DNA of 64,000 bases from Nemertoderma westbladi (lineage: Eukaryota; Animalia; Xenacoelomorpha), in the NCBI GenBank assembly GCA_032718475.1, contig JAUCBJ010005597.1, forward strand, positions 389 to 64,388, in the 5' to 3' direction. The notes below the pieces were generated by a model. It searched no databases and was not told the origin of the DNA. It saw only the letters and a list, made by a program, of their open reading frames with translations. This document shows positions 13,544 through 47,317 of the stretch, piece after piece. Position 1 is the first letter of the stretch. Every line of letters begins with the position of its first letter. The translations under genes and the position numbers were made by a program.

Positions 13544-13609
13544 TCACGTCCGCACCTGGAAGTTTCCTGCTTTTGTAATGTACTTGACACCTTTAAATGG
13601 TTTGTATTT
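13544..13609 (-). CDS. AP3M1: AP3M exon 10 (terminal)
   Basis: tttttag|KYKPFKGVKYITKAGNFQVRT-TGA. Confidence 0.95.
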   Translation of the reverse strand, partial: KYKPFKGVKYITKAGNFQVRT

Positions 13610-16600
13610 CTAAAAATAAAATAAAACCATGCAGAGTAAGAGACATAATACTCTTAATTCGTTAAATCCGTTAAAAATCCGTTAGTGTTAACGCAATAAC
13701 GCCAACTATTGCATTTAGTCCATAATAACTGCATGGAGAGGACAACTAACAGATCACTATACACCTACATCCAAATGGTATGCCTAGTTAACAGTTCTAG
13801 GCGTGTTCTTTACAAATAGTGGACCTGCAACTTTGTAATATGTCAGTTTTAACTGATTATAAGACTTAAAAATAATTCAACATGGCCTAAACAAATTCTA
13901 CATTTGCTATATGCTACCACATTGCTATCCTGCTATACGTAGTCAAAACATCTTCAACGAATGGCCTGGTCGATAAATAAATTTATATACTTAGCTAGAC
14001 TTTAACTAGCAGACTTTACCGTGTAATTTGCTAATATTAATAATTCTAAAACCTACCAATTTCGTGCTCTATCGATCCCCATGATAAAATTTGGAAAAGA
14101 AATTCCACCAAATAATTATATATTACATGGGAAAAAAAGTAGAACTTTCTTTCACTATTCTCGAGGCATTTTATTTACGAGCGTTAGCGACGTTAATAAA
14201 CGGTCGAGAGAATATTGAAAAAAATGTTACGTTTTTTCCCATGAATACGTAATTTTATTCTTAAATTGGAACGTTTTTGTTGCTCAATTATTTAATAAAA
14301 GTTATAGAGCGGTATAGTGTTACAAGAACTGTAATATTAATATTTTACTATATTGCTTTGGCTTCCATAGTTACTCCTGGTGCCGCCTTAACTCGCTGTT
14401 AAATAATTTAGTGTTCTCGAATATTTATTACGTAACTAGATAGCCGGTTAACTACAGAAACTAATATTGGATATTGAGTTCTGTTTTGGAATTCGCCTTG
14501 CAGACACTAAAGTTGCAATAACTTTTTGAGTGTGTGCATGGATTTTGCAGAAATTACGTACTATTCCAATTCGATGCTCTTTCGATATGTAACAAAATTT
14601 AAAAAATTTCACCGAAAATATTTTATTTTACCTTTTTCGCCGGGAAAAAAGTAAAATCAGTGCAATCCTTTGGGTTTATTTTTTTCCCTAGGGAAAAAAA
14701 TAACTTTTTCCCCGAGTTTGGGGTATATATTCGAGCAAAAAGTAACAATTTAAGAATAAAATAATTTTATTTATTATAATATTTTAACAGTAAAAACTAA
14801 AAAGTACCATATGCGATATTTGTAACCGGTATCGGTATACAGTTTTGGTTCATTACATATTATTTATGTGTATTAAATTGGATTGCACGATAAAACTTAC
14901 CTCCCCATACATATCTAAACGATTAACCCGCAATCCCGACACTGCTAATTGTTCGATCTTAAAGTGAACAGTTACAATTGGATTGGAATCTGGTAAGGGA
15001 ACGCCGTGCTGTAAATTAATCTAAAAAACAATTAGGATTGTTAAATGCACCAAACTGAAGTGACTTCCGGGAAACGCTCCGTCCTATAATTAGACTAGCT
15101 ACTACAACAATATACAATATATTACCAGTTGGTTGGCCAACCGTGAAGGCAGTGATAGTGTTCGGCTGGTCACTCATGGAGAAACAACCGGGTATAGAAT
15201 ATTATACTAAATTAATATATTTAAAACTAATAAAGGATAAAGTGGACAAATTTAATGTAGAATAATACAAAGTTAAGGAAACAGATACATCGTGATGGTT
15301 TAGACATAAATTACAGAAAATATAATCATTATCAAAGCATCTTGTGGGGCGAGCCACGAAGTACGCGAGCTTAGCATACGGGTACCGCCGTCTGTGCTTC
15401 GTTTTGTTGTCGAATGATTGAGGTTACAGACTATCACAGTTGAGATGTCAACGATACACCGCTGGGGGGAGATAACTTCGGGCCTAGGTTGAACTTCTCA
15501 ACGATACACCACTGGGGGGAGATAACTTCGGGCCTAGGTTGAATTTCTAAACGACACGCTACTGGGGGAGAGAACTTCGGGCCTAGGTTGAACTTCTCAA
15601 CGATACGCTACTGGGGGAGAGAACTTCGGGCCTAGGTTGAACTTCTCAACGACACGCTACTGGGGGAGAGAACTTCGGGCCTAGGTTGAACTTCTCAACG
15701 ACACGCTACTGGGGGAGAGAACTTCGGGCCTAGGTTGAACTTCTCAACGATACGCTACTGGGGGAGAGAACTTCGGGCCCAGGTTGAACTTCTCAACGAC
15801 ACGCTACTGGGGGAGAGAACTTCGGGCCTAGGTTGAACTTCTCAACGATACGCTACTGGGGGAGAGAACTTCGGGCCTAGGTTGAACTTCTCAACGACAC
15901 GCTACTGGGGGAGAGAACTTCGGGCCTAGGTTGAACTTCTCAACGACACGCTACTGGGGGAGAGAACTTCGGGCCTAGGTTGAACTTCTCAACGACACGC
16001 TACTGGGGGAGAGAACTTCGGGCCCAGGTTGAACTTCTCAACGACACGCTACTGGGGGAGAGAACTTCGGGCCTAGGTTGAACTTCTCAACGATACGCTA
16101 CTGGGGGAGAGAACTTCGGGCCCAGGTTGAACTTCTCAACGACACGCTACTGGGGGAGAGAACTTCGGGCCTAGGTTGAACTTCTCAACGATACGCTACT
16201 GGGGGAGAGAACTTCGGGCCTAGGTTGAACTTCTCAACGACACGCTACTGGGGGAGAGAACTTCGGGCCTAGGTTGAACTTCTCAACGATACGCTACTGG
16301 GGGAGAGAACTTCGGGCCTAGGTTGAACTTCTCAACGACACGCTACTGGGGGAGAGAACTTCGGGCCTAGGTTGAACTTCTCAACGATACGCTACTGGGG
16401 GAGAGAACTTCGGGCCTAGGTTGAACTTCTCAACGACACGCTACTGGGGGAGAGAACTTCGGGCCTAGGTTGAACTTCTCAACGATACGCTACTGGGGGA
16501 GAGAACTTCGGGCCTAGGTTGAACTTCTCAACGACACGCTACTGGGGGAGAGAACTTCGGGCCTAGGTTGAACTTCTCAACGATACGCTACTGGGGGAGA

Positions 16601-19600: not shown

Positions 19601-22600
19601 GGGCCTAGGTTGAACTTCTCAACGACACGCTACTGGGGGAGAGAACTTCGGGCCCAGGTTGAATTTCTCAACGACACGCCACTGGGGGAGAGAACTTCGG
19701 GCCTAGGTTGAACTTCTCAACGATACGCTACTGGGGGAGAGAACTTCGGGCCTAGGTTGAACTTCTCAACGATACGCCACTGGGGGAGAGAACTTCGGGC
19801 CTAGGTTGAACTTCTCAACGACACGCTACTGGGGGGAGATAACTTCGGGCCTAGGTTGAACTTCTCAACGACACGCTACTGGGGGAGAGAACTTCGGGCC
19901 TAGGTTGAACTTCTCAACGACACGCTACTGGGGGATAGAACTTCGGGCCTAGGTTGAACATCTCAACGATACACCACTGGGGGAGAGAACTTCGGGCCTA
20001 GGTTGAACTTCTCAACGACACGCTACTGGGGGAGAGAACTTCGGGCCTAGGTTGAACTTCTCAACGACACGCTACTGGGGGATAGAACTTCGGGCCTAGG
20101 TTGAACATCTCAACGATACACCACTGGGGGAGAGAACTTCGGGCCTAGGTTGAACTTCTCAACGATACGCCACTGGGGGAGAGAACTTCGGGCCCAGGTT
20201 GAACTTCTCAACGATACGCCACTGGGGGAGAGAACTTCGGGCCTAGGTTGAACTTCTCAACGATACGCTACTGGGGGAGAGAACTTCGGGCCTAGGTTGA
20301 ACTTCTCAACGATACGCCACTGGGGGAGAGAACTTCGGGCCTAGGTTGAACTTCTCAACGATACGCTACTGGGGGAGAGAACTTCGGGCCTAGGTTGAAC
20401 TTCTCAACGATACACCACTGGGGGAGAGAACTTCGGGCCCAGGTTGAACTTCTCAACGACACGCTACTGGGGGAGAGAACTTCGGGCCTAGGTTGAATTT
20501 CTCAACGACACGCTACTGGGGGAGAGAACTTCGGGCCTAGGTTGAACTTCTCAACGATACGCCACTGGGGGAGAGAACTTCGGGCTTAGGTTGAACTTCT
20601 CAACGATACGCCACTGGGGGAGAGAACTTCGGGCCTAGGTTGAACTTCTCAACGATACGCCACTGGGGGAGAGAACTTCGGGCCTAGGTTGAACATCTCA
20701 ACGACACGCTACTGGGGGGAGATAACTTCGGGCCTAGGTTGAACTTCTCAACGACACGCTACTGGGGGGAGATAACTTCGGGCCTAGTTGAACTTCTCAA
20801 CGACACGCTACTGGGGGAGAGAACTTCGGGCCTAGGTTGAACTTCTCAACGATACACCACTGGGGGAGAGAACTTCGGGCCTAGGTTGAACATCTCAACG
20901 ACACGCTACTGGGGGGAGATAACTTCGGGCCTAGGTTGAACTTCTCAACGACACGCTACTGGGGGAGAGAACTTCGGGCCTAGTTGAACTTCTCAACGAC
21001 ACGCTACTGGGGGAGAGAACTTCGGGCCTAGGTTGAACTTCTCAACGATACGCCACTGGGGGAGAGAACTTCGGGCCTAGGTTGAACATCTCAACGACAC
21101 GCTACTGGGGGGAGATAACTTCGGGCCTAGGTTGAACTTCTCAACGACACGCTACTGGGGGGAGATAACTTCGGGCCTAGTTGAACTTCTCAACGACACG
21201 CTACTGGGGGAGAGAACTTCGGGCCTAGGTTGAACTTCTCAACGATACACCACTGGGGGAGAGAACTTCGGGCCTAGGTTGAACATCTCAACGACACGCT
21301 ACTGGGGGGAGATAACTTCGGGCCTAGGTTGAACTTCTCAACGACACGCTACTGGGGGAGAGAACTTCGGGCTTAGGTTGAACTTCTCAACGATACACCA
21401 CTGGGGGAGAGAACTTCGGGCTTAGGTTGAACTTCTCAACGATACACCACTGGGGAGAGAACTTCGGGCCTAGGTTGAACTTCTCAACGACACGCTACTG
21501 GGGGAGAGAACTTCGGGCCTAGGTTGAACTTCTCAACGATACGCCACTGGGGGAGAGAACTTCGGGCTTAGGTTGAACTTCTCAACGACACGCTACTGGG
21601 GGAGATAACTTCGGGCCTAGGTTGAACTTCTCAACGACACGCTACTGGGGGAGAGAACTTCGGGCTTAGGTTGAACTTCTCAACGATACACCACTGGGGG
21701 AGAGAACTTCGGGCTTAGGTTGAACTTCTCAACGATACACCACTGGGGAGAGAACTTCGGGCCTAGGTTGAACTTCTCAACGATACACCACTGGGGGAGA
21801 GAACTTCGGGCTTAGGTTGAACTTCTCAACGATACGCCACTGGGGGAGAGAACTTCGGGCCCAGGTTGAACATCTCAACGATACGCCACTGGGGGAGAGA
21901 ACTTCGGGCTTAGGTTGAACTTCTCAACGACACGCTACTGGGGGAGAGAACTTCGGGCTTAGGTTGAACTTCTCAACGATACACCACTGGGGGAGAGAAC
22001 TTCGGGCTTAGGTTGAACTTCTCAACGATACACCACTGGGGAGAGAACTTCGGGCCTAGGTTGAACTTCTCAACGATACACCACTGGGGGAGAGAACTTC
22101 GGGCTTAGGTTGAACTTCTCAACGATACGCCACTGGGGGAGAGAACTTCGGGCCTAGGTTGAACTTCTCAACGATACGCCACTGGGGGAGAGAACTTCGG
22201 GCCCAGGTTGAACATCTCAACGATACACCACTGGGGAGAGAACTTCGGGCCTAGTTGAACTTCGGCAAGAATGTTTTGGATGTACTAGGCAGGGCGCATC
22301 TATAACATAAATGGTCGCTAAAAATAAACTCAGGTTATTCTGGAGAGTATTAGTTTTGCGGAGACATTGTCGGATATCTTCGGATCAGCTGTTTGTAGAT
22401 GTAAATTACTTACAGTTCCGGATATCTTTGGGTCAGCTGTTTGTAGATGTAAATTACTTACAGTTCCGGATATCTTTGGGTCAGCTGTTAGTGAATGAGA
22501 TTTACTTACAGTTCCGGATATCTTTGGGTCAGCTGTTAGTGAATGAGATTTACTTAAAGTTCCGGATATCTTTGGGTCAGCTGTTAGTGAATGAGATTTA

Positions 22601-25600
22601 CTTACAGTTCCGGATATCTTTGGGTCAGCTGTTTGTGAATGAGATTTACTTACAGTTCCGGATATCTTTGGGTCAACTGTTTGTGAATGAGATTTACTTA
22701 CAGTTCCGGATATCTTTGGGTCAGCTGTCTGTGAATGATATTTACTTACAGTTCCGGATATCTTTGGGTCAGCTGTTTGTGAATGAGATTTACTTACAGT
22801 TCCGGATATCTTTGGGTCAGCTGTTTGTGAATGAGATTTACTTACAGTTCCGGATATCTTTGGGTCAGCTGTCTGTGAATGATATTTACTTACAGTTCCG
22901 GATATCTTTGGGTCAGCTGTTTGTGAATGAGATTTACTTACAGTTCCGGATATCTTTGGGTCAGCTGTTTGTGAATGAGATTTACTTACAGTTCCGGATA
23001 TCTTTGGGTCAGCTGTTTGTGAATGATATTTACTTACAGTTCCGGATATCTTTGGGTCAGCTGTCTGTGAATGATATTTACTTACAGTTCCGGATATCTT
23101 TGGGTCAGCTGTTAGTGAATGAGATTTACTTACAGTTCCGGATATCTTTGGGTCAGCTGTTAGTGAATGAGATTTACTTACAGTTCCGGATATTTTTGGA
23201 TTAGCTGTTAGTGAATCAGATTTACTTACAGTTCCGGATATCTTTGGATTAGCTGTCTGTGGCTGCAGCTTTCCAACATCCCAGATCATTCGCTTGTTCT
23301 GCTGGTCGAAGTTGTATGTGCCTTGTGTCGCATTCAGGTTGACATTTAGAACAGATTTAGGTAACTGGACGGAAAGTTGCAACAAGTCAACCTGAAAATT
23401 GTAAGTAATAACTATTTACACACTTGTGTGTAAAGTAGCACATTACAATGCGATGATCCGAGTGGCTTTCTTACACGAACGAACGTTAGTGAGTGAGTGA
23501 AAATAAAGCCACGAGGATCAGAACACTGTAAAGTACTTTGCAACAAGTATGTTATGTAGTTTTATTCCAGAATTTTAACATTACGAAATGATTGTATATA
23601 TATTATAAGTGATAGAAACTGCACAAATTATATTAGTTGCTGTATAAATAAATGTAAAAATGACATAAATTATGTTATAAATAAGTTAGCTTATATTTAT
23701 GGTGGCGTTTGGAACCATGTTATAATGATATAGCTAGGCCCTACTGGATATTAATAGCTATACCCCGCCTACCGGTAGATATTGCAGTAGGCCTATCTGG
23801 CTGTCAGACAAATTCCCACCTATTGTTTACGTGGTATCCAATGACGGCGTTAGTAATCTCCCCTTAGTGGATATTACTTAACACCGTCATGGGTTACCAC
23901 GTAAACAATAACACCAAATAAAATACTAATTGGACAGGCCAATACAATGCTGTAATGTCCTCTAAAGTTGTAAAGTTCTAAATAACAACTCGCTGTTAAT
24001 ACTAACGGCGTTGAGTAATGTTACAATTTTGGAATAATATAATATCATTTATTGCTCGGTGAAAAATACATCCTATCCAACCATTCTAGATAAAATATAA
24101 AACAGCACATTATCAGCTAAAATCTACGATATTTAGGGTTTTCGTGGGCGGTGATTTCATTTCCGATGTCTATTTTGTCTGTTTACATGTTTGGCTGATT
24201 GCTTTCTGTATGTCTGTAAGTCTCTCGGGTAAATATTTAAAAGCCCATTTCTCGGCAGTTTAATTTTATCAAATAACTGATTTACGACAATTTTAACTAA
24301 AACATTAAAACCATGATAATTTGTAGTTTCATACAATTTAGTAATTCGTAGTTAATTTGATGTTATTTCAACAAGAATCACTAAGTTAATGATTCAACCC
24401 CTGTCTTCTTTTGGACGGTTATACGGGCGCACCTTCGTTGCTCACAGCTACGACGTCGTCCACATTCTAAATATTAATTGGAATAATCCCAAATACCACA
24501 AACCAATTGTTATTATCATAATTATTAATACAGTAGTTATCTTAAAATGAAACTCACCGTTTTCCCCATAGATTGCTTAGAACCAACGGATATGTCAAGT
24601 CTGCCTCCGCTATCACGAAATGATATTGAGGGTTTAACGAAAACTGGAATTGCAACCATACTAAATAAGAAATAAGATACAGGGAATGTAAATGTGTGTG
24701 GTGAACTGAGTTGAAGATTTTTTTATGCTCTAATGCAAATGACAAATGTAAATAGTTAGTGTTGTTAAGTACAAGACATCAATTCAGAAAAGAAACCAAT
24801 ACCAGTGACAAACTGAACTCATTCAGACTCACACTAATAAATTACATTCCCGATAACAGGTTCAAACCTAATTTTGCACCCCAATATTCTTTAAACCTAC
24901 TTTTGCACACGATATTGTTTAAACCTATAACTTTGCCCCCGAAATGGTTTAAACCTACTTCTGAGCCCCGATGTGGTAAGTCATTAGCCGAAAGTTGCCA
25001 TCAGGGGGAACGAAAGAGAGCAGCCGTTCAGATTCCCAACGCTTGTATCGAACGCAGGGGTGGAAGGCTACGTCATCCAGCAGCCGGGGGTTAACGAAGG
25101 TCAACGTTAGATCCGGCATACCAGACAGACGGATGGAACAGTCGATGACACCGGTAATCTCAGCTGATACAGTAGACCCCTAAAATGGGAATCAAATAAG
25201 TCAGATAAGTTGGTTAAATAAGAATTTATACAAGTGAGACTGTATAGGAACTATCATGGTTTTGCATTTGTAACGATTTAAATAAAATGAAAATATTTCA
25301 ACATTTCCTAAGCGGTTCAAATAAAGTTATCCCAATAGCATTGATGAGTTGTCTTTGTTTAGTAAGCGTAATAGCTTCCTACGAAGTCGAAGATGGTACC
25401 GAAACATATGGCAGGTAATAATAGATTTAATGAACAAAAAAACGAATTTATAATGGGACTTACTAGGTTGTCAATAATACAATCTAGACTATCAATGATA
25501 TCAACCAGCGCCTCGTTACTAGTGTAGGACACATTAGCCCGTCGCCATGGCACCGGTGAGAACAGCTGGCCGGCAGGTAAACGTGCTGATAAACTAATCA

Positions 25601-28600
25601 CCAACATAACATGCGAGAGAGAGAAACAATGCAACAATAATAATTAGCAGCAATTAATTAATTATTATTAATTAAGCAAGAGAGAGGAAAGTGCCAATAT
25701 CAATGAAGTACCGATCACATACTTTAGGACCATGTTACAGAAATTAGGGACCGTGTACAAAATAATGTCACGCCATTTTTGACGATTTTTGACCCCCCCC
25801 CCCCCCCCCCCCCCCCCCATCATCAATGTCACAATCTGTGACTAATTTTGTAATCCCCCTCCCCCCTTGAACATCACGTCACAAAAATAACCAGTATAGT
25901 TAATAAAAAAAATGTTAATACTAACTAGTTCTGCTACCGATATATTTAGTAATATTTTATTATAATATTAAATATATTACAGTATTAGTATTATAAATAT
26001 TATATTATAAAATAATATTTCTCTATTAGTTCTGGAGGATTTTAAAACATAAAATGGATAGGATATTATTACATTAATATGAGTTAAGCAAAAAGATACG
26101 ATAAATTCTATATTATATGATGAGCTATCAGACGATTTTTGAGCGCTGGCAAAAACCTGTTGGTAAAAGGCCATAGTGGCTCATTTTGAAACCGGATCGA
26201 AAGAAAGAATACAAGAGAAGAAAATAAGAATAAAAATCATAATAGGGTTATACAGTTTAGTATATACAGACAGACACACATACACTCCGCCCCTCCCCTA
26301 CCGACCGATAAACAAACAAACAAACATAGTAAAAATAAACCAAGTAATCGCGGCTGTAGTGCTGAGAATAGCCTAGTTAATGATGTTGTTTGTTGTACCT
26401 GTAATATACTTGTATACTACTAGTCTAGTTACCGGTAAATAAAATATTTACTCCTCTATGGCATGGTACTCGTTCGAATAAATACTTATTATTTTAGAAA
26501 TAATATATTTTATTGTAATAAGTTTTGTATTTGCAAAATGTATTTTATTTGTTCACACAAAGTGCAATTGTGACGTCACAAGTATAGCTACCCCCCCCCC
26601 CCCCCCACTCCCCTATGCCACAAATTGTCACAAAATTGCAAACCCCTTCCCAGCCCTTCGACCGTGACATAATTTGTGCACGGTCCGGCCCCTAAGGCAA
26701 TAAAAACATAATTTAGTAAATTAATAATTATAATACCTCGAAAACATCGTGCAAATTACAAACATTTAAAATATAAGATGAAATGAAAAAAATTAACACA
26801 AAGACAATTTATAGCGCGGACAACTAATACCGACACTGCGACACAGACAATAAATATGATATTTCTAACACCAACTTCATGTTAGATTTATTTTATTTTT
26901 CATGTCCCCTTAAGTAAAAAAGTAAAAAAAACATAAACTTATAAATTAAATTTAGACCGAAAATTGAGTCACGGAAATGGGCACAACTTAATTATAACAT
27001 ACTGTAATTGTTTTAAGAGAATAATTAAACGATTCGACTCCTAGTATATTAGATAAACAGAATTTGTAATATAAAGTTTTTAACAATTAATTAATTATTA
27101 ATTATTTCGCAATTTTAATTGGTAATTATACTTTATTGTGAGCAATTAAAAGCTCAATGAGATTCAAGTTGATTAAGGAAGCAAGGAAAATATTTGATAA
27201 TATAAATAATATTATCAATATTCGCATTATAATAGTCATACCGCCACCAAAAGCATAGCAGTTAAAGGAAACTAACAAGTATAGCGCCACCAGTTTACAA
27301 TCAAAACATTTCGTTAAGAAACAATTAATTAAGCGGAAAGCAAAAAAACATCAAAGGTTATTTCGCGAGAAGCATGCCGATCGATTACTCACAGACTTAT
27401 CGATTATAGTGTCTATCTCTTCAACACAATCAAAATAGGCCTCATTATTAGTATAGCGAACACCAGTCCGACGCCAGGGTACGTTGGATAACTGGCCGGC
27501 AGGTAACTGGTCGCTTACGCTAGGGGGCGCAAATAAACATTGGGGATGTAAATAAACGATGACGGTAGCCGACAGAACGGGGTGCGGTTAATGTAAATAA
27601 CCAAATCCGTTAGTATATAGAATATAGGGGATATTTGATAAAATACAAATTCTTCATGTAAAATGTGAGGATATCAACGCGATCTGTTAAGTGCAAGCGG
27701 GTACCATTGGTTTAGTGTACGTTGGACCCACAGTTAGCTGCGGGTACCATTGGTTTAGTGTACGTTGGACCCACAGTTAGGTGCGGGTACCATTGGTTTA
27801 GTGTACGTTGGATCCACAGTTAGGTGCGGGTACCATTGGTTTAGTGTACGTTGGATCCACAGTTAGCTGCGGGTACCATTGGTTTAGTGTACGTTGGTCC
27901 CACAGTTAGCTGCGGGTACCATTGGTTTAGTGTACGTTGGATCCACAGTTAGCTGCGGGTACCATTGGTTTAGTGTACGTTGGACCCACAGTTAGCTGCG
28001 GGTACCATTGGTTTAGTGTACGTTGGATCCACAGTTAGCTGCGGGTACCATTGGTTTAGTGTACGTTGGTCCCACAGTTAGCTGCGGGTACCATTGGTTT
28101 AGTGTACGTTGGATCCACAGTTAGCTGCGGGTACCATTGGTTTAGTGTACGTTGGACCCACAGTTAGCTGCGGGTACCATTGGTTTAGTGTACGTTGGTC
28201 CCACAGTTAGCTGCGGGTACCATTGGTTTAGTGTACGTTGGATCCACAGTTAGCTGCGGGTACCATTGGTTTAGTGTACGTTGGACCCACAGTTAGCTGC
28301 GGGTACCATTGGTTTAGTGTACGTTGGACCCACAGTTAGCTGAGGGCACGATTGGTTTAGTGTACGTTGGATCCACAGTTAGGTGCGGGTACCATTGGTT
28401 TAGTGTACGTTGGAACCATTACAGTTAGCTGCGGGTACCATTGGTTTAGTGTACGTTGGACCCACAGTTAGCTGCGGGTACCATTGGTTTAGTGTACGTT
28501 GGACCCACAGTTAGCTGCGGGTACCATTGGTTTAGTGTACGTTGGACCCACAGTTAGCTGAGGGCACGATTGGTTTAGTGTACGTTGGATCCACAGTTAG

Positions 28601-31600
28601 GTGCGGGTACCATTGGTTTAGTGTACGTTGGAACCATTACAGTTAGCTGCGGGTACCATTGGTTTAGTGTACGTTGGACCCACAGTTAGCTGCGGGTACC
28701 ATTGGTTTAGTGTACGTTGGATCCACAGTTAGCTGCGGGTACCATTGGTTTAGTGTACGTTGGATCCACAGTTAGGTGCGGGTACCATTGGTTTAGTGTA
28801 CGTTGGAACCATTACAGTTAGCTGCGGGTACCATTGGTTTAGTGTACGTTGGACCCACAGTTAGCTGCGGGTACCATTGGTTTAGTGTACGTTGGACCCA
28901 CAGTTAGCAGCGGGTACCATTGGTTTAGTATACGTTGGAACCATTACAGTTAGCTGCGGGTACCATTGGTTTAGTGTACGTTGGAACCATTACAGTTAGC
29001 TGCGGGTACCATTGGTTTAGTGTACGTTGGACCCACAGTTAGCTGCGGGTACCATTGGTTTAGTGTACGTTGGAACCATTACAGTTAGCTGCGGGTACCA
29101 TTGGTTTAGTGTACGTTGGACCCATTACAGTTAGCTGCGGGTACCATTGGTTTAGTGTACGTTGGACCCACAGTTAGCTGCGGGTACCATTGGTTTAGTG
29201 TACGTTGGACCCACAGTTAGCTGCGGGTACCATTGGTTTAGTGTACGTTGGACCCATTACAGATAGCTGCGGGTACCATTGGTTTAGTGTACGTCGGACC
29301 CATTACAGTTAGCTGCGGGTATCATTGGTTTAGTGAACGTTGGACCCATTACAGTTAGCTGCGGGTACCATTGGTTTAGTGTACGTTGGACCCACAGTTA
29401 GCAGCGGGTACCATTGGTTTAGTGTACGTTGGAACCATTACAGTTAGCTGCGGGTACCATTGGTTTAGTGTACGTTGGACCCACAGTTAGCTGCGGGTAT
29501 CATTGGTTTAGTGAACGTTGGACCCATTACAGTTAGCTGCGGGTACCATTGGTTTAGTGTACGTTGGACCCACAGTTAGCTGAGGGCACGATTGGTTTAG
29601 TGTACGTTGGACCCACAGTTAGCAGCGGGTACCATTGGTTTAGTGTACGTTGGACCCACAGTTAGCTGCGGGTACCATTGGTTTAGTGTACGTCGGACCC
29701 ATTACAGTTAGCTGCGGGTACCATTGGTTTAGTGTACGTTGGACCCACAGTTAGCTGCGGGTACCATTGGTTTAGTGTACGTTGGACCCACAGTTAGCTG
29801 CGGGTACCATTGGTTTAGTGTACGTTGGACCCACAGTTAGCTGCAGCGGGTACCATTGGTTTAGTGTACGTTGGACCCATTACAGTTAGCTGCGGGTAAC
29901 ATTGGTTTAGTGTACGTTGGACCCACAGTTAGCTGCAGCGGGTACCATTGGTTTAGTGTACGTTGGAACCATTACAGTTAGCTGCGGGTACCATTGGTTT
30001 AGTGTACGTTGGACCCACAGTTAGCTGCGGGTACCATTGGTTTAGTGTACGTTGGACCCACAGTTAGCTGCGGGTACCATTGGTTTAGTGTACGTTGGAC
30101 CCATTACAGTTAGCTGCGGGTACCATTGGTTTAGTGCACGTTGGACCCACAGTTAGCTGCGGGTACCATTGGTTTAGTGTACGTTGGATCCACAGTTAGC
30201 TGCGGGTACCATTGGTTTAGTGAACGTTGGACCCACAGTTAGCTGCAGCGGGTACCATTGGTTTAGTGTACGTTGGAACCATTACAGTTAGCTGCGGGTA
30301 CCATTGGTTTAGTGTACGTTGGATCCACAGTTAGCTGCGGGTACCATTGGTTTAGTGTACGTTGGATCCACAGTTAGCTGCGGGTACCATTGGTTTAGTG
30401 TACGTTGGACCCACAGTTAGCTGCGGGTACCATTGGTTTAGTGTACATTGGACCCACAGTTAGCTGCGGGTACCATTGGTTTAGTGAACGTTGGACCCAC
30501 AGTTAGCTGCGGGTACCATTGGTTTAGTGTACGTTGGATCCACAGTTAGCTACGGGTACCATTGGTTTAGTGTACGTTGGATCCACAGTTAGCTGCGGGT
30601 ACCATTGGTTTAGTGTACGTTGGACCCACAGTTAGCTGCGGGTACCATTGGTTTAGTGTACGTTGGATCCACAGTTAGCTGCGGGTACCATTGGTTTAGT
30701 GTACATTGGACCCACAGTTAGCTGCGGGTACCATTGGTTTAGTGTACGTTGGAACCATTACAGTTAGCTGCGGGTACCATTGGTTTAGTGTACGTTGGAT
30801 CCACAGTTAGCTACGGGTACCATTGGTTTAGTGTACGTTGGATCCACAGTTAGCTGCGGGTACCATTGGTTTAGTGTACGTTGGACCCACAGTTAGCTGC
30901 GGGTACCATTGGTTTAGTGTACGTTGGATCCACAGTTAGCTGCGGGTACCATTGGTTTAGTGTACATTGGACCCACAGTTAGCTGCGGGTACCATTGGTT
31001 TAGTGTACGTTGGAACCATTACAGTTAGCTACGGGTACCATTGGTTTAGTGTACGTTGGATCCACAGTTAGCTGCGGGTACCATTGGTTTAGTGAACGTT
31101 GGACCCACAGTTAGCTGCGGGTACCATTGGTTTAGTGTACGTTGGATCCACAGTTAGCTACGGGTACCATTGGTTTAGTGTACGTTGGATCCACAGTTAG
31201 CTGCGGGTACCATTGGTTTAGTGTACGTTGGACCCACAGTTAGCTGCGGTTACCATTGGTTTAGTGTACGTTGGACCCACAGTTAGGTGCGGGTACCATT
31301 GGTTTAGTGTACGTTGGAACCATTACAGTTAGCTGCGGGTACCATTGGTTTAGTGTACGTTGGACCCACAGTTAGCTGCAGCGGGTAACATTGGTTTAGT
31401 GTACGTTGGAACCATTACAGTTAGCTGCGGGTACCATTGGTTTAGTGTACGTTGGATCCACAGTTAGCTGCGGGTACCATTGGTTTAGTGTACGTTGGAC
31501 CCACAGTTAGCTGAGGGCACGATTGGTTTAGTGTACGTTGGACCCACAGTTAGCTGCGGGTACCATTGGTTTAGTGTACGTTGGATCCACAGTTAGCTAC

Positions 31601-34600
31601 GGGTACCATTGGTTTAGTGTACGTTGGATCCACAGTTAGCTGCGGGTACCATTGGTTTAGTGTACGTTGGATCCACAGTTAGCTGCGGGTACCATTGGTT
31701 TAGTGTACGTTGGACCCACAGTTAGCTGCGGGTACCATTGGTTTAGTGTACGTTGGACCCACAGTTAGCTGCGGGTACCATTGGTTTAGTGTACGTTGGA
31801 TCCACAGTTAGCTGCGGGTACCATTGGTTTAGTGTACGTTGGACCCACAGTTAGCTGCGGGTACCATTGGTTTAGTGTACGTTGGACCCACAGTTAGCTG
31901 CGGGTACCATTGGTTTAGTGTACGTTGGAACCATTACAGTTAGCTGCGGGTACCATTGGCGTAGTGTACGTTGGACCCACAGTTAGCTGCGGGTAACATT
32001 GGTTTAGTGTACGTTGGACCCATTACAGTTAGCTGCGGGTAACATTGGTTTAGTGTACGTTGGACCCACAGTTAGCTGCAGCGGGTACCATTGGTTTAGT
32101 GTACGTTGGAACCATTACAGTTAGCTGCGGGTACCATTGGCGTAGTGTACGTTGGACCCACAGTTAGCTGCGGGTAACATTGGTTTAGTGTACGTTGGAC
32201 CCATTACAGTTAGCTGCGGGTAACATTGGTTTAGTGTACGTTGGACCCATTACAGTTAGCTGCGGGTAACATTGGTTTAGTGTACGTTGGACCCACAGTT
32301 AGCTGCGGGTACCATTGGTTTAGTGTACGTTGGACCCACAGTTAGCTGCGGGTACCATTGGTTTAGTGTACGTTGGACCCATTACAGTTAGCAGCGGGTA
32401 CCATTGGTTTAGTGTACGTTGGACCCACAGTTAGCTGCAGCGGGTACCATTGGTTTAGTGTACGTTGGACCCATTACAGTTAGCAGCGGGTACCATTGGT
32501 TTAGTGTACGTTGGACCCACAGTTAGCTGCAGCGGGTACCATTGGTTTAGTGTACGTTGGACCCACAGTTAGCTGAGGGCACGATTGGTTTAGTGTACGT
32601 TGGACCCACAGTTAGCAGCGGGTACCGTTGGTTTAGTGTACGTTGGACCCACAGTTAGCTGCGGGTACCATTGGTTTAGTGTACGTTGGACCCACAGTTA
32701 GCTGCGGGTACCATTGGTTTAGTGTACGTTGGACCCACAGTTAGCTGCGGGTACCATTGGTTTAGTGTACGTTGGACCCACAGTTAGCTGAGGGCACGAT
32801 TGGTTTAGTGTACGTTGGACCCACAGTTAGCTGCGGGTACCGTTGGTTTAGTGTACGTTGGACCCACAGTTAGCTGCGGGTAACATTGGTTTAGTGTACG
32901 TTGGACCCATTACAGTTAGCTGCGGGTACCATTGGTTTAGTGTACGTTGGACCCACAGTTAGCTGCGGGTACCATTGGTTTAGTGTACGTTGGAACCATT
33001 ACAGTTAGCTGCGGGTACCATTGGTTTAGTGTACGTTGGACCCACAGTTAGCTGCGGGTACCATTGGTTTAGTGTACGTTGGAACCATTACAGTTAGCTG
33101 CGGGTACCATTGGTTTAGTGTACGTTGGACCCACAGTTAGCTGCGGGTACCATTGGTTTAGTGTACGTTGGACCCACAGTTAGCTGCGGGTACCATTGGT
33201 TTAGTGTACGTTGGACCCACAGTTAGCTGCGGGTACCAGTGGTTTAGTGTACGTTGGAACCATTACAGTTATCTGCGGGTACCATTGGTTTAGTGTACGT
33301 TGGACCCACAGTTAGCTGCGGGTACCATTGGTTTAGTGTACGTTGGACCCACAGTTAGCTGCGGGTACCATTGGTTTAGTGTACGTTGGAACCATTACAG
33401 TTAGCTGCGGGTACCATTGGTTTAGTGTACGTTGGACCCACAGTTAGCTGCGGGTAACATTGGTTTAGTGTACGTTGGACCCATTACAGTTAGCTGCGGG
33501 TACCATTGGTTTAGTGTACGTTGGACCCACAGTTAGCTGCGGGTACCATTGGTTTAGTGTACGTTGGAACCATTACAGTTAGCTGCGGGTACCATTGGTT
33601 TAGTGTACGTTGGACCCACAGTTAGCTGCGGGTACCATTGGTTTAGTGTACGTTGGAACCATTACAGTTAGCTGCGGGTACCATTGGTTTAGTGTACGTT
33701 GGACCCACAGTTAGCTGCGGGTACCATTGGTTTAGTGTACGTTGGACCCACAGTTAGCTGCGGGTACCAGTGGTTTAGTGTACGTTGGAACCATTACAGT
33801 TAGCTGCGGGTACCATTGGTTTAGTGTACGTTGGACCCACAGTTAGCTGCGGGTACCATTGGTTTAGTGTACGTTGGACCCACAGTTAGCAGCGGGTACA
33901 ATTGGTTTAGTGTACGTTGGAACCATTACAGTTAGCTGCGGGTACCATTGGTTTAGTGTACGTTGGACCCACAGTTAGCTGCGGGTACCATTGGTTTATT
34001 GTACGTTGGAACCATTACAGTTAGCTGCGGGTACCATTGGTTTAGTGTACGTTGGAACCATTACAGTTAGCTGCGGGTACCATTGGTTTAGTGTACGTTG
34101 GAACCATTACAGTTAGCTGCGGGTACCATTGGTTTAGTGTACGTTGGACCCACAGTTAGCTGCGGGTACCATTGGTTTAGTGTACGTTGGACCCACAGTT
34201 AGCTACGGGTACCATTGGTTTAGTGTACGTTGGAACCATTACAGTTAGCTGCGGGTACCATTGGTTTAGTGTACGTCGGACCCATTACAGTTAGCTGCGG
34301 GTACCATTGGTTTAGTGTACGTCGGACCCATTACAGTTAGCTGCGGGTACCATTGGTTTAGTGTACGTTGGACCCACAGTTAGCAGCGGGTACCATTGGT
34401 TTAGTGTACGTTGGAACCATTACAGTTAGCTGCGGGTACCATTGGTTTAGTGTACGTTGGACCCACAGTTAGCTGCGGGTACCATTCGTTTAGTGTACGT
34501 TGGAACCATTACAGTTAGCTGCGGGTATCATTGGTTTAGTGTACGTTGGACCCATTACAGAACATACCGTTACATCGCACTAACTTGGATTTCCCAGTGA

Positions 34601-37600
34601 CTGTATTAACCACTGAACGAAGTATATTTGGGGGTCTGATGAGTTCTTGAAGAATGTTCGACTCGGTTGCCAGGGGAAACCCATTGTCTAGCATTTCCTC
34701 TAAAAGCTAAAATATTTTTAATTTTAATAATATTAATTTTATACAGGAGTGTATCTAGTCAAATAACATTATATATTAACTTGATTATGGTGAACGGCTA
34801 CGCAATCAGATAGATTTGGTTGGATTGATTGCTTATATACAAACAGAACTGTAAAGATACATCCACCGCCACCAATATAATTATTAGGAACCGCAGGTTA
34901 CTTGCTGTAACAAGTCTACCCTGAAATGAATCTATGTTGGTTGATAGATTGAGTTAGTGTGATAGATTAATTAATTATTGAGTGATCAAATTGAAAACGG
35001 CTCTAACAATATTCAAAATATTTTCAACAAGGGTAGATACATTTAAAGTCACTCGAAAATTTTCAGACTAAGGGGGTCAGGGGTCTAGCAATGCGATGCT
35101 CTGATTGGCTAATACTGAACCTCGAAAAAACTCGACTACTGGTAATCAAAAACGAAATTTTTCAATTCTCGCTAGGAATATCCCACACCATTTATCAGCT
35201 GTATCTGTATGTATACTTTGGGAGGGTCGAGACCAGATAATATGAACTAACTATTATAAAACCAAATGAAATATGCTAGAATTTCAGTTTCTTTACTGCC
35301 AAGGTTGCAAGGTTCCACCTTGGTGTGTAGTAGTTGCATTGAATTCACATCTCCCATAGGTCGTGGGTTCGATCCTCGCATTGGCCAGGGCAGTTTTCGT
35401 TTCGGCACGAATGCTTTGAAGGGACCAGCCAGGGCGCATAGCTGCCTTTCATCCTTAAATGGTTGCTAAATGTGTACTGGAGTTTCCTCTGGAGAGTATT
35501 AACTGTTTTAGGTAGCTAAATGAGTACTGGAGTTTACTCTGGGGAGTATAGTTCTTGGGGGACCGCACTGGAAATAAGTCGTCAGAGTTTGTGCGTAATC
35601 CCTGGCCTAACGGCCAAAGAGAATTTATTTTTTTACATTATACCGCATCGCGGTGTGTCCAAGTAGTTTAATTACAAACAGACTCAACTCGCCTCGTAAA
35701 CGACAACTAAGTTGTCCTTTATTGTAGTCTCATTGCATTCTTGGAAGTAATCGTTGAAGGTATCCACCACGCGGTAGAGAAACTCCAGAACGAAAAGTGG
35801 AGGAACTAGAAATAAATTATTAGTTACGAATTAATGATAAAATGTTCTATTTAGATAAAAGAGTTAGTATTGTTGGCTGGACCTGTGCTGTGTGCTCGTG
35901 TGAAATAAATGTTCTATTTCAGAGGAGGCGGGAGGGGGTGAATGCGGAGGCGGGAGGGGGTGAATGTGGAGGCGGGAGGGGGTGAATGCGGAGGCGGGAG
36001 GGGGTGAATGTGGAGGCGGGAGGGGGTGAATGCGGAGGCGGGAGGCGGTGAATGCGGAGGCGGGAGGGGGTGAATGCGGAGGCGGGAGGCGGTGAATGCG
36101 GAGGCGGGAGGCGGTGAATGCGGAGGCGGGAGGGGGTGAATGCGGAGGCGGGAGGGGGTGAATGTGGAGGCGGGAGGGGGTGAATGCGGAGGCGGGAGGC
36201 GGTGAATGCGGAGGCGGGAGGGGGTGAATGCGGAGGCGGGAGGCGGTGAATGCGGAGGCGGGAGGCGGTGAATGCGGAGGCGGGAGGGGGTGAATGCGGA
36301 GGCGGGAGGCGGTGAATGCGGAGGCGGGAGGCGGTGAATGCGGAGGCGGGAGGGGGTGAATGCGGAGGCGGGAGGCGGTGAATGCGGAGGCGGGAGGCGG
36401 TGAATGCGGAGGCGGGAGGCGGTGAATGCGGAGGCGGGAGGGGGTGAATGCGGAGGCGGGAGGGGGTGAATGTGGAGGCGGGAGGGGGTGAATGCGGAGG
36501 CGGGAGGCGGTGAATGCGGAGGCGGGAGGGGGTGAATGCGGAGGCGGGAGGCGGTGAATGCGGAGGCGGGAGGGGGTGAATGCGGAGGCGGGAGGCGGTG
36601 AATGCGGAGGCGGGAGGCGGTGAATGCGGAGGCGGGAGGCGGTGAATGCGGAGGCGGGAGGGGGTGAATGCGGAGGCGGGAGGGGGTGAATGTGGAGGCG
36701 GGAGGGGGTGAATGCGGAGGCGGGAGGGGGTGAATGCGGAGGCGGGAGGGGGTGAATGCGGAGGCGGGAGGCGGTGAATGCGGAGGCGGGAGGGGGTGAA
36801 TGCGGAGGCGGGAGGCGGTGAATGCGGAGGCGGGAGGCGGTGAATGCGGAGGCGGGAGGGGGTGAATGCGGAGGCGGGAGGCGGTGAATGCGGAGGCGGG
36901 AGGCGGTGAATGCGGAGGCGGGAGGGGGTGAATGCGGAGGCGGGAGGCGGTGAATGCGGAGGCGGGAGGCGGTGAATGCGGAGGCGGGAGGCGGTGAATG
37001 CGGAGGCGGGAGGGGGTGAATGCGGAGGCGGGAGGGGGTGAATGTGGAGGCGGGAGGGGGTGAATGCGGAGGCGGGAGGCGGTGAATGCGGAGGCGGGAG
37101 GGGGTGAATGCGGAGGCGGGAGGCGGTGAATGCGGAGGCGGGAGGCGGTGAATGCGGAGGCGGGAGGGGGTGAATGCGGAGGCGGGAGGCGGTGAATGCG
37201 GAGGCGGGAGGCGGTGAATGCGGAGGCGGGAGGGGGTGAATGCGGAGGCGGGAGGGGGTGAATGCGGAGGCGGTGAATGCGGAGGCGGGAGGGGGTGAAT
37301 GCGGAGGCGGGAGGGGGTGAATGCGGAGGCGGGAGGCGGTGAATGCGGAGGCGGGAGGCGGTGAATGCGGAGGCGGGAGGGGGTGAATGCGGAGGCGGTG
37401 AATGCGGAGGCGGGAGGCGGTGAATGCGGAGGCGGGAGGGGGTGAATGCGGAGGCGGGAGGGGGTGAATGCGGAGGCGGGAGGGGGTGAATGCGGAGGCG
37501 GGAGGCGGTGAATGCGGAGGCGGGAGGCGGTGAATGCGGAGGCGGGAGGGGGTGAATGCGGAGGCGGGAGGCGGTGAATGCGGAGGCGGGAGGCGGTGAA

Positions 37601-40600: not shown

Positions 40601-42259
40601 ACCGTGAACGCCGTTATCGAGGTGCTATAAATTTTGGTAACGTTGACGTGTTTATATTGAGTCACCACTAATTTAAATACTTCCAAGGTTCTCAACAATG
40701 AAAAAATCACATTTTATAAAAATCGACTGTTTGTTCCACGTCGAACCTAAAATCAGTCGACTTTGGATAAGTTTGTAGACCGCGGAAAATGTAGAGTTTG
40801 GAAAAACTCACAGAAACATCACCCAATATCTACAAAATGTTTATCCAAAGTCTAAAATTCAGTTCTATTCGGAATACGTTTTATAGAGCGGAATAGAGCT
40901 GAATACGTTTTATAGAGCGGAATACGTTTTATAGAGCGGAATAGAGCTGAATACGTTTTATAGAGCGGAATACGTTTTATAGAGCGGAATACGCTCCAAA
41001 GGATCAGGGATTATTACGCAATCTCAAAGACCCCCCATCTATTAATAGTCTGCAGCAGTTCAGTTGTGCCCGACCCTTGACGGCCCCTCACTCGATATAT
41101 CACCGCTAAACAGGACAAAAGCACTAGACTCTAACCATATTCAGGGAGCTGTTATTCTTTAACCTTATAGCGATTTGTTGACAGTTATATTGAGACTGAC
41201 TGAGTGATAGCGTTATTCTGTTTTAAGCATATACAACAATAACTTATTTAGAATATACTATCTAATTTGGAAAGTACTAAACCAACCTTCTGTTAGCACA
41301 ATAGCGACAAAGTAGATATTTTTCCGGGTAATGTTTATGAGGTAATGGTGGGGAGTGGAAATTACCGGTGGGATATCCTCAGGGGTGCTCGCCTTCTTCT
41401 GAGCCTCAAAGAAATAGTCGCATATCGATCTATTTATAACACTCTTCCAATGTTTCTCAAGGAAAATATCACTGCAATAGAATACAAAATGTAAGACTTT
41501 TTTTTAATTAGTGTACGAGAAGTTCTATTTACGACCGACTTTATATTAAAATTCAAGTTTTGGAGTTGAACAAATGGTATTCCATTGTATAATAATTATG
41601 ACATACAGAGGTAATTAAATACAGAAATAGGTCTAATAAATACCAGTACCGTAGTATTTCAGCCAATTTCCAAATGTAATCTACGATGCCCGGTGGCTGA
41701 ATTGTGCCAATTAAAAAATAATAATAATTTATGGTCGACCATAAATTAATAAGCGGATAAGTGGTCGACCATAAATTAATAAATGGTCGACCATAAATTA
41801 TTAATTTTTTTCAATTGGCACAATTCAGCCAATGTAGTATGAATAATGGTAAACTTGAAATGGTAAAAAATAAGTAATCCCAAAGATGAAAGTTTTTATT
41901 CCATAGGTAATGAGGGTTAATTTTTCGAGTTACATCCCTGCATCCATAAAAACACGCCTTCTGTAATGTCTTGGGGGCCTTCTGCTGTCCTGGGCTTCCT
42001 TCCATTTTAGAGTTGAATTTACAACTTAAAATGCAGAAATGTCCGGAAATAAATATTATTATATTCTACATTTATTGCTGTATTGATAATACCGAAATAA
42101 TCACAGCGACCGTGATCGTTGGGTTGGTAATAAATTACTAAATTATTAAAGAAAGGATCGCAATATACGGGTGCGGTGCAAGGTCAGACTGACTAAAGGT
42201 CGATACGGTAACTTCTGAACTTACCCAGTGGAATTAATTATAAACAAGCTGCTTATCAT
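13544..42259 (-). CDS. AP3M1: AP-3 adaptor complex mu subunit (mu3), whole multi-exon CDS span
   Basis: Exons joined by hand with consistent phases: 42225-42259, 41287-41471, 35693-35805, 34585-34706, [27393-27519 or 25464-25593], 24959-25179, 24558-24660, 23230-23391, 14901-15020, 13544-13609. The total is 1254 nt (417 aa), colinear with vertebrate mu3A from MI.SLF.IN..GDIFLEKHWKSV to KYKPFKGVKY.TKAG.FQVRT*. Confidence 0.96.
14901..15020 (-). CDS. AP3M1: AP3M exon 9
   Basis: ttttag|INLQHGVPLPDSNPIVTVHFKIEQLAVSGLRVNRLDMYGE|gtaagt. Confidence 0.95.
15448..22266. repeat. 49-bp minisatellite array, ~139 copies, in AP3M intron 8
   Basis: Unit ttctcaacga(c/t)acgctactgggggagagaacttcgggcctaggttgaac, head to tail with no spacers. 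Confidence 0.98.
22370..23258 (-). repeat. 48-bp minisatellite derived from the AP3M exon 8 / intron 8 junction, 18 full copies plus a partial
   Basis: Unit is the last 27 exonic nt (TANPKISGT) plus gtaagtaaatctcattcacta/aa. It is stop-free, translating as TADPKISGTVSKSHSQ repeats. Confidence 0.95.
23230..23391 (-). CDS. AP3M1: AP3M exon 8
   Basis: ttttcag|VDLLQLSVQLPKSVLNVNLNATQGTYNFDQQNKRMIWDVGKLQPQTANPKISGT|gtaagt. Confidence 0.92.
24558..24660 (-). CDS. AP3M1: AP3M exon 7
   Basis: tttag|(N)MVAIPVFVKPSISFRDSGGRLDISVGSKQSMGKT|gtgagt. Confidence 0.95.
24959..25179 (-). CDS. AP3M1: AP3M exon 6
   Basis: ttttag|GSTVSAEITGVIDCSIRLSGMPDLTLTFVNPRLLDDVAFHPCVRYKRWESERLLSFVPPDGNFRLMTYHIGAQ|gtaggt. 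Confidence 0.96.
25464..25593 (-). CDS. AP3M1: AP3M alternative exon 5B (divergent duplicate, putative mutually exclusive exon)
   Basis: Pyrimidine tract then tgattag|(N)LSARLPAGQLFSPVPWRRANVSYTSNEALVDIIDSLDCIIDNL|gtaagt. It is 130 nt, stop-free, and has the same phases (2/0) as exon 5A. Confidence 0.8.
25748..26693. mobile_element. Non-autonomous TIR element (MITE, PIF/Harbinger-like ends) between exons 5A and 5B
   Basis: tta|gggaccgtgtacaaaataatgtcacg ... cgtgacataatttgtgcacggtcc(ggc)ccc|taa. Related single ends at ~12925 and ~49497. Confidence 0.7.
27393..27519 (-). CDS. AP3M1: AP3M exon 5A (canonical)
   Basis: ccctag|(N)VSDQLPAGQLSNVPWRRTGVRYTNNEAYFDCVEEIDTIIDKS|gtgagt; 127 nt. Confidence 0.95.
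27697..34560. repeat. 43-bp (46-bp variants) minisatellite array, roughly 155 copies, filling AP3M intron 4
   Basis: Unit gctgcgggtaccattggtttagtgtacgttggacccacagtta, with +tta and +gca variants. Confidence 0.98.
34585..34706 (-). CDS. AP3M1: AP3M exon 4
   Basis: ttttag|LLEEMLDNGFPLATESNILQELIRPPNILRSVVNTVTGKS(N)|gttagt. Confidence 0.95.
35310..35615 (+). mobile_element. tRNA-derived SINE
   Basis: Pol III-like A box (tggtgtgtagtag) and B box (ggttcgatcc), with a T-rich tail. A second copy lies inverted at 44865-45137. Confidence 0.75.
35693..35805 (-). CDS. AP3M1: AP3M exon 3 (GC donor)
   Basis: tttctag|(V)PPLFVLEFLYRVVDTFNDYFQECNETTIKDNLVVVYE|gcgagt. Confidence 0.92.
35922..37882. repeat. 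22-bp G-rich minisatellite, ~89 copies, in AP3M intron 2
   Basis: Unit ggaggcgggagg(c/g)ggtgaatgc. Confidence 0.97.
38372..40158 (+). mobile_element. Helentron/HINE-like non-autonomous element with an internal 315-bp tandem array (~5 units)
   Basis: The period is 315 (taacgacgac at 38761, 39076, 39391, 39706, 40021), followed by (gac)n. Short subterminal inverted repeats cacgaagt / acttcgtg. Related ends in reverse orientation at ~15340-15370 and 47740-48070. The family assignment is inferred from architecture only. Confidence 0.6.
40157..40495. repeat. ~340-bp imperfect foldback with hammerhead-like cores in both outer arms
   Basis: 40160-40222 is the reverse complement of 40432-40492, and 40305-40352 pairs with 40376-40426. 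Confidence 0.75.
40870..40995. repeat. Short tandem repeat (cggaatacgttttatagag)
   Basis: About 4-5 imperfect copies of a 19-bp unit. Confidence 0.8.
41287..41471 (-). CDS. AP3M1: AP3M exon 2
   Basis: ttgcag|(G)DIFLEKHWKSVINRSICDYFFEAQKKASTPEDIPPVISTPHHYLINITRKNIYFVAIVLTE|gttggt. Confidence 0.96.
42225..42259 (-). CDS. AP3M1: AP3M first coding exon
   Basis: ATG-ISSLFIINST(G)|gtaagt; matches the mu3A start MIHSLFLINCSG. Confidence 0.92.
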
Positions 42260-46309: not shown

Positions 46310-46678
46310 TATACAAGAATACACCAGTCCGCCAGTAGTGATACCGGTACCGTGGAACATATAATCGGAAATAAAAACGGACAAATGGACCTAATGAGTG
46401 ATGTAAACGGACAAGAAAATGTATTCTGATTACCGGGTATTAATTATTTCTGTATGTCACACACGGTTCGGCAGTTCTGGCATCTGGCTGTCTGGTGTTA
46501 TCAAAATGACTGAATGATATCGATATCACACTGTACAGCTGTATCTCTGTGTGCAGTAATACTCACAGCTGTTAGGTACGGTACTGAAGTCAGGAAGTAG
46601 GCCTACAACTGTAAGTTATTATTCATACCGTCAGCTAGAACCCTTTGAAAAGAAACTAAGAAACAGGCAAAGAACTAC

Positions 46679-47317
46679 ATGACTAACTTATTTATTATCC
46701 CGCGATTCCATCGATATATAATTAAACCCCGGTCTGAGAATCTCATATACCGCGTACATGCAGCTCCACGATCAACACTCGGATCTAAAACGATAACTAC
46801 CGGTAGGCCCCCAACCTATTATCATGGGAACTCTAAAGTTCTATACGATGGATTGTATCAAGTTTATCAAGGAGAGAGTAAACGTATTATTGTCTGGTCT
46901 AAACTCATTTCTTTGAGCTCCAGTATAGCCGGTAGTCTTGTACTCTACGCAATAAGTAAAGGCTCGTTAGCCTCCGCTCCAATTCTGGGCGGCGCATTGG
47001 CTTCCTTGGCGTTTATGTTTACGTGCGGAACTCCATTTCTCCTCCATTTATTGTGTATGCGATACGTCGAAGAATTGCATTACAACCCAGACGATCAACT
47101 ATTTACCGCTGTAACTTACAATCTGTTTATGATAAGGAAGATACATTTATTTACGGTGTCACAAGTTAAATATCCCCAGACTCCTGGATTGTTCACTACC
47201 TTCTATGTTGGTTGGCGACCGTTTGTTCTTGACATTGAGAAGGTTGAACCGGAAACTTGTTGTATTCTAATGAGATTCGGTGAGAAAATCACTCAACTCA
47301 ACGACAAACGAAACTAA
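46679..47317 (+). CDS. TMEM70: TMEM70 (mitochondrial ATP synthase assembly factor), single coding exon
   Basis: Arg-rich presequence-like N-terminus, VYQG...SKLISLSSS, two hydrophobic segments, then TPFLLHLLCMRYVEELHY...FTAVTYN...VKYP...LFTTFYV. Compare human TPVLLHFITKGYVIRLYH...YKAITYN...VKIP...VFTTFYA. Confidence 0.88.
   Translation: MTNLFIIPRFHRYIIKPRSENLIYRVHAAPRSTLGSKTITTGRPPTYYHGNSKVLYDGLYQVYQGESKRIIVWSKLISLSSSIAGSLVLYAISKGSLASAPILGGALASLAFMFTCGTPFLLHLLCMRYVEELHYNPDDQLFTAVTYNLFMIRKIHLFTVSQVKYPQTPGLFTTFYVGWRPFVLDIEKVEPETCCILMRFGEKITQLNDKRN

Follow-up and report, generated by a model that had tools for sequence, protein, structure and literature searches.

Can a single animal gene supply AP-3 with two mu subunits that differ in cargo binding? 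The question is raised by a stretch of 64,000 nucleotides (nt) from the xenacoelomorph Nemertoderma westbladi (GenBank assembly GCA_032718475.1, contig JAUCBJ010005597.1, positions 389 to 64,388 of the forward strand; hereafter the window). It contains an AP-3 mu (mu3) gene with two copies of exon 5. The canonical copy, 5A, encodes the Y-F-D motif of the pocket for YxxPhi sorting signals, and the divergent copy, 5B, encodes L-V-D at the same place. We consider that 5B, an old tandem duplicate of exon 5, is probably used by splicing in place of 5A, and its sequence predicts altered YxxPhi binding in the resulting second mu3. Present-day use of 5B in a mutually exclusive manner appears likely.

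Two copies of exon 5 in an AP-3 mu gene

Assembled from the window, the gene occupies the minus strand and spans ten coding exons between 42259 and 13544, of which exon 5 is present twice. Its features, in order of transcription, are as follows.

42225..42259, minus strand: exon 1, coding part, with the start codon at 42259
41287..41471, minus strand: exon 2
35693..35805, minus strand: exon 3, followed by a GC donor
34585..34706, minus strand: exon 4, upstream exon common to both isoforms, ending in phase 2
27522..27651, minus strand: AG-free zone before 5A, 130 nt, with branch-point-like motifs at -94 and -72
27393..27519, minus strand: exon 5A, canonical copy, 127 nt, mu3A residues 153-194, Y-F-D pocket motif
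25596..25721, minus strand: AG-free zone before 5B, 126 nt, with two CU runs, GCAUG at -21 and several branch-point-like motifs (-54 to -110)
25464..25593, minus strand: exon 5B, divergent copy, 130 nt, 18 replacements, one inserted codon, L-V-D for Y-F-D
24959..25179, minus strand: exon 6, downstream exon common to both isoforms, starting in phase 0
24558..24660, minus strand: exon 7
23230..23391, minus strand: exon 8
14901..15020, minus strand: exon 9
13544..13609, minus strand: exon 10, coding part and stop, containing the last strand by alignment, common to both isoforms

Judged by its homology, the gene encodes an AP-3 mu subunit (AP3M) with a longin domain and a mu-homology domain. The named matches to exon 6 are nearly all AP-3 mu (one is labelled AP-1 mu), the top PDB matches of both 5A and 5B are mu3, and the two peptides cover the start of Pfam PF00928. 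The best full-length identity to any homologue is 74%. In a quick tree of 76 full-length rows the gene groups on a long branch with lancelet, sea urchin and two vertebrates (Shimodaira-Hasegawa-like approximate likelihood-ratio test, SH-aLRT, 96), a weak placement, as none of the rows was named as xenacoelomorph, cnidarian or sponge.

The peptides of 5A and 5B are identical at 24 of 42 residues, apart from a one-codon insertion in 5B, and the DNA identity is 60%. Both align to residues 153-194 of human mu3A, with E values of 3.5e-18 (5A) and 8e-9 (5B), so that their likeness to mu3A is not due to chance. The low DNA identity, together with unrelated flanks, excludes an assembly artefact in which two haplotypes were joined. 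Searched for by tblastn in the window, exons 2 to 10 gave neither a third copy of exon 5 nor any other whole-exon duplicate.

Each copy is preceded by AG, followed by GT and free of internal stops. Exon 4 contributes the first two bases of a split codon, which 5A and 5B each complete as Asn. The inclusion of a single copy keeps the frame, giving 417 residues with 5A and 418 with 5B and ending at the same normal stop. Joining both copies brings a first stop at codon 214, which lies 676 nt ahead of the last junction; leaving both out brings one at codon 176, 533 nt ahead of that junction. Because these stops lie far upstream of the last junction, transcripts with both exons or with neither would be targets of nonsense-mediated decay, by which they would be removed. 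An earlier, sequence-only reading of this DNA had placed two homologous minus-strand exons here, with the same coordinates and peptides, AG/GT borders, entry in phase 2 and exit in phase 0, no stops, a frameshift on inclusion of both or neither, and heavy DNA divergence with a single one-codon indel. All of this was recovered in our analysis.

Age of the duplication and selection on exon 5B

The introns flanking 5A and 5B have no similarity above that of shuffled sequences, which indicates that the duplication is old. The two copies differ at 15, 12 and 23 of the 42 first, second and third codon positions. The nonsynonymous divergence (dN) between them is 0.42 and the synonymous divergence (dS) 1.47, close to saturation. 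Purifying selection is indicated by the invariant columns, with whole-exon tests weaker.

We compared 5B with a null model of a constrained 5A and a neutral 5B. An unbiased set of 120 homologues was chosen by exon 6 alone; 6 of them do not have the region, and in the remaining 114 there are 25 near-invariant and 17 variable columns among the 42. 5B changes only 6 of the 25 near-invariant columns (neutral mean 10.7, P 0.003-0.005) as against 12 of the 17 variable ones. It retains 19 of the 25 animal-invariant residues, and 11 of those 19 codons are synonymously different. A likelihood test confined to these 25 near-invariant columns, whose ancestral residues are known, gave best omega values of 0.05-0.15 and rejected omega=1 under four of four models (p 0.0013-0.0061). 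In neutral forward simulations, 24 or more identical residues combined with 14 or more synonymous differences and the absence of stops arose with P <=0.005 in all 20 settings, for a statistic that was picked after the data had been seen and that does not yet require the frame and the splice sites to be intact. Of the 18 residues replaced in 5B, seven are found in the 114-homologue set (null expectation 2.5-2.7, P 0.006-0.008), an excess of which part reflects changes on the 5A side. The number rises to 15 of 18 found in some natural mu3 once 148 matches retrieved with 5B are added, a set biased by this choice. These patterns indicate that 5B is a real, old duplicate exon that has been under selection.

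A 15-nt run is identical between the copies (25566-25580 and 27492-27506), despite near-saturated synonymous sites elsewhere. By the codon usage of the gene, the chance of five matching codons forming such a run is about 0.002, a post hoc figure. The run could be a short gene-conversion tract or a common exonic splicing element.

The selection detected might also belong to the past. 5B could be a pseudoexon that was once used or tolerated and is now silent and decaying, and its odd pocket residues could be early decay. It departs from the animal majority at 18 positions, twice the 9 of 5A; three of its replacements, R173S, Y180L and E185D, are absent from all 114 + 148 homologues; and the whole-exon omega tests are weak. 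However, neutrality since the duplication is rejected, and the frame, the AG, the GTAAGT donor and the 126-nt AG-free zone are all intact even though the flanks have become unrecognisable; a silent 5B would be compatible with this only if it had been lost recently. We therefore regard a silent 5B as unlikely.

Exon 5B and the cargo pocket

The alignment equates Y180, F181 and D182 of mu3 with F174, L175 and D176 of mu2, so the numbering of Y180/D182 and F174/D176 used in the earlier reading holds. In mu2, the wall of the Tyr pocket is provided by F174, the tyrosine hydroxyl is bonded by D176, and L175 belongs to the lining of the Phi pocket (PMC2133128). D182 of mu3A has the same role as mu2 D176, and the pockets are built by strands 1 and 16 (PMC3912200). 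The alignment and this literature support the proposal that the duplicated segment covers the end of the mu linker and the first strand of the mu-homology domain, with the YxxPhi pocket. The pocket's second half, formed by the last strand, aligns to exon 10 and is common to both isoforms.

The exchange of 5A for 5B replaces Y180 by Leu and F181 by Val and keeps D182, as had been read from the sequence before. Both copies thus have the Asp at mu2 176/mu3A 182, and the aromatic residue at 174/180 is present in 5A and replaced by Leu in 5B. Y-F-D is found in 114 of the 114 unbiased homologues and in 138 of the 148 usable matches out of 150. All 274 scored sequences (114/114, 148/148 and 12/12 mu3 loci from the metagenome scan described below) have Tyr or Phe at position 180, which is aromatic in yeast mu3 and in mu2 too. 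Since yeast mu3 reads Y-V-D, F181V is a natural state. Among the sequences compared, Y180L is the unusual change of 5B.

In isoform B the aromatic wall of the Tyr pocket would be lost (Y180L) and the Phi pocket would be roomier (F181V), with the hydrogen-bonding Asp182 kept. Residues 139-148 of mu3 form an amphipathic helix (PMC13178560; bioRxiv 10.1101/2024.06.05.597630), which by alignment falls in the shared exon 4 and is kept by both isoforms. Assembly and membrane binding would be expected to persist in isoform B, as shared exons encode its longin domain, the amphipathic helix of its linker and the final strand of its pocket. We predict that isoform B folds as a mu3 but binds YxxPhi signals more weakly or with a shifted preference. 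As Y180L removes an aromatic residue found in every scored homologue, weaker binding is as plausible as a new specificity. In mu2, the double mutation F174S/D176A abolishes one two-hybrid interaction, and D176A alone does not (PMC11638888).

A live, mutually exclusive 5B could also leave cargo binding little changed, or equivalent, with the isoforms differing in the shape of the linker or in packing on the beta3 subunit. The swap leaves D182 and the last strand unchanged, Val at 181 is also the state of yeast, the inserted codon and N164P lie in the linker part, and 15 of the 18 replaced residues have natural precedents in the partly 5B-picked, biased set. Position 180, on the other hand, is aromatic in every scored sequence and contacts the signal tyrosine in mu2. 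We find little-changed binding rather unlikely.

A metagenome scan recovered 13 loci, which comprise 12 single-copy mu3 genes with Y-V-D and one chance match. The 12 genes, apparently fungal, were found through a shared 8-residue pattern and are thus biased towards 5B. Transfer as the source of the likeness was rejected, because 5B keeps the exon borders of 5A and the 15-nt identical stretch. We read the likeness as residues that are tolerated in both. Three of 139 scorable fragments (P0126, P0209 and P0218) read through a border after residue 194 like that of this gene, and P0209 and P0218 have F-L-D at 180-182 with S176. These fragments may be constitutive exons of early-branching animals or alternative copies.

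Splicing signals, related systems and implications

Both copies follow unusually long AG-free zones: 130 nt for 5A and 126 nt for 5B, as against 18-58 nt at the eight other acceptors. AG gaps reaching 117 nt account for 3 of 1055 in the non-repeat background, and AG-free windows of 126 nt for 49 of 20,985; given the local composition, the P values are 0.017 and 0.006. Given that the flanks of the two copies have unrelated sequences, the most natural reading of the zone before 5B is that use has kept it. Two CU runs are present upstream of 5B and none at the other nine acceptors (6 in 22,381 background bases), and GCAUG motifs lie 16 nt downstream of 5A and 21 nt upstream of 5B. CU runs are of the kind bound by PTB. 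The runs here may, as a hypothesis, be PTB sites and the GCAUG motifs RBFOX sites. As the CU runs before 5B suggest PTB repression, 5B is probably a minor, cell-type-restricted form. In human genes, such zones are a sign of distant branch points and show an enrichment for alternative exons; the small number of examples studied are under PTB regulation (PMC1431707).

The four splice sites of 5A and 5B are all ordinary GT/AG sites. The 5B donor is the consensus GTAAGT, and its acceptor has 9 pyrimidines of 17, within the range of 7-13 seen in the gene. A search for docking-selector pairing found none convincing, as the 25 longest of 62 inverted repeats are AT-rich or lie inside the intron. Steric hindrance is unlikely because the intron between 5A and 5B, at 1799 nt, is too long. 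The choice of exon would instead be set by splicing factors bound between the distant branch point and the exon. The selection on invariant columns, the two AG-free zones and the frame logic together support the earlier proposal of a maintained, mutually exclusive 5B.

Two further explanations compete with this one. 5B could be a poison exon, joined with 5A to shift the frame and thereby lower mu3 through nonsense-mediated decay; double inclusion does produce the early stop at codon 214, and long AG-free zones also occur at decay-linked exons such as PTB exon 11 (PMC1431707). A poison exon needs no protein-level constraint, yet the selection on 5B acts in a frame that works only without 5A, and we consider this explanation very improbable. 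The same holds for a shorter transcript from an intronic promoter that would open with 5B and encode a free mu-homology domain: from an in-frame ATG at 25607, 15 nt upstream, the frame stays open through 5B, but such ATGs are presumably common by chance, and the correct acceptor phase and the 126-nt AG-free zone are needed only if 5B is spliced to.

Several results weigh against a spliced 5B with altered binding. The omega for the whole exon is 0.28 with a bootstrap range of 0-0.77, and the likelihood surface under a uniform omega is flat, with a gain of ~0.8-3.1 log units over omega=1. The conservativeness of the 5B replacements by BLOSUM is not significant (P 0.11-0.20), and the finding that 5B is hydrophobic at all 14 hydrophobic positions is borderline (P 0.02-0.07). 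Past selection is in any case no proof of present use. About half or more of the long human AG-free zones arise by chance (PMC1431707), and GCAUG is also found 23 nt before the single-copy exon 10. The effect of Y180L is extrapolated from mu2, where the cited data concern the double mutant F174S/D176A, and the role of Y180 in mu3A itself comes from alignment. No transcript of 5B and no junction read was seen; a search of sequencing runs with the segment 23240-27690 listed no RNA run, a blank that says nothing about expression. No 5B orthologue was found in other species, among matches that include no close relative. Word-index protein searches (77-2000 and 23-76 residues) found no 5B-type protein. 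In a HMMER search of cluster representatives none of the best 150 of 191 matches was 5B-like, the matches listed being canonical or distant mu3 and two repeat-protein artefacts, and the ESM Atlas gave no usable match to 5B. The blanks in the protein searches say little, because two other proteins of the window are absent from the same collection: the TMEM70-like protein, the SLC6-like protein and the 5B read-through frame scored 0 of 3.

The surroundings of the gene are rich in repeats. A satellite of 43 bp x 156 (27697-34554) occupies intron 4 up to a point 177 nt short of 5A, immediately outside the AG-free zone of that exon; other intronic satellites are 49 bp x 139 (15465-22263), 22 bp x 90 (35924-37882) and 315 bp x 4.8 (38528-40035). 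A 48-bp tandem repeat at 22371-23261 (18.6 copies) consists of the end of exon 8 with its GTAAGT donor. The intron after exon 3 is of the GC-AG type, with the GC donor at 35691-35692. Two related short elements in the intron between 5A and 5B (25748-25857 and 26591-26686) have G tracts and inverted ends and are probably remnants of a small transposon. A TMEM70-family open reading frame (46649-47317, plus strand) lies head to head with the AP-3 mu gene. On the minus strand are an intronless 715-codon sodium:neurotransmitter symporter frame (54977-57124) and an interrupted reverse-transcriptase frame (50164-52867), which from its translation appears to be of the long interspersed nuclear element (LINE) type.

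Homologous mutually exclusive exons are a familiar class (SNAP25, DNM1, ACTN1 and others), and 5A and 5B are likewise adjoining, of near-equal length and in the same phases. In this class generally the swap keeps the fold and alters binding-site residues, with the variable residues clustered at functional sites (PMC7954323), and 5A/5B are predicted to follow the same pattern. They share with the class homology, length, phase, frame and purifying selection. An AP-3 instance is not described in the literature searched. AP3M1, AP3M2, AP2M1, AP1M1 and AP4M1 gave no matches in the available supplements of two human catalogues (PMC8373072, PMC5740500), whose files may be incomplete, while the controls DNM1, SNAP25 and ACTN1 were found in them. 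A literature search, with subscription papers and invertebrate catalogues outside its scope, found no described mutually exclusive exon case in AP-3 or other mu genes. The available text of an AP-3 review names only gene-encoded isoforms, and 'splic' never occurs in it (PMC10235903). Octopus and lancelet isoform models were rejected as instances of the same switch, since they differ elsewhere and exon 5 is canonical in the listed octopus rows and in the representative of the lancelet models.

With exons that use distant branch points, such as those of alpha-tropomyosin and PTB exon 11 (PMC1431707), 5B has in common an AG-free zone of more than 100 nt and CU runs. Unlike in those cases, the 1.8-kb intron means that crowding of the upstream donor by the branch point cannot explain exclusivity, and the branch points here are motif candidates. 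The vertebrate paralogues mu3A and mu3B (AP3M1/AP3M2), to which 5A/5B had been likened, also provide two alternative mu subunits for one AP-3 complex, and ubiquitous AP-3A is distinguished from neuronal AP-3B (PMC10235903, PMC2133128). The analogy stands for the outcome and fails for mechanism and site. The paralogues are two genes that differ at 4 of 42 residues here and keep Y-F-D, whereas 5A and 5B are set apart by 18 replacements and one inserted codon, with the pocket among the altered positions, and the remainder of the protein is common to both isoforms.

Altered binding through a spliced 5B, if real, invites a broader and doubtful conjecture: that one animal gene switches the AP-3 cargo code by splicing, with isoform B made in one cell type (neurons or secretory cells), where it would read a non-canonical signal or dampen tyrosine sorting so that the coat works mainly on dileucine cargo. 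Because the binding of tyrosine cargo is reported to rigidify AP-3 and license coat assembly (bioRxiv 10.1101/2024.06.05.597630), the exchange would amount to a naturally occurring splicing switch that acts on cargo choice and on coat assembly alike. The reach of the finding is limited, since splicing of this kind is well known in general and the case could belong to a single lineage. Gene duplication is a known route by which AP complexes diversify, and in the vertebrate mu3 paralogues the pocket strand is unaltered. A spliced swap of that strand would yield a natural, fold-compatible mu3 that lacks an aromatic residue kept from yeast to human. Such a variant would be directly assayable, and may show how far YxxPhi recognition can be retuned and whether an invertebrate obtains a cell-type-specific AP-3 by splicing.

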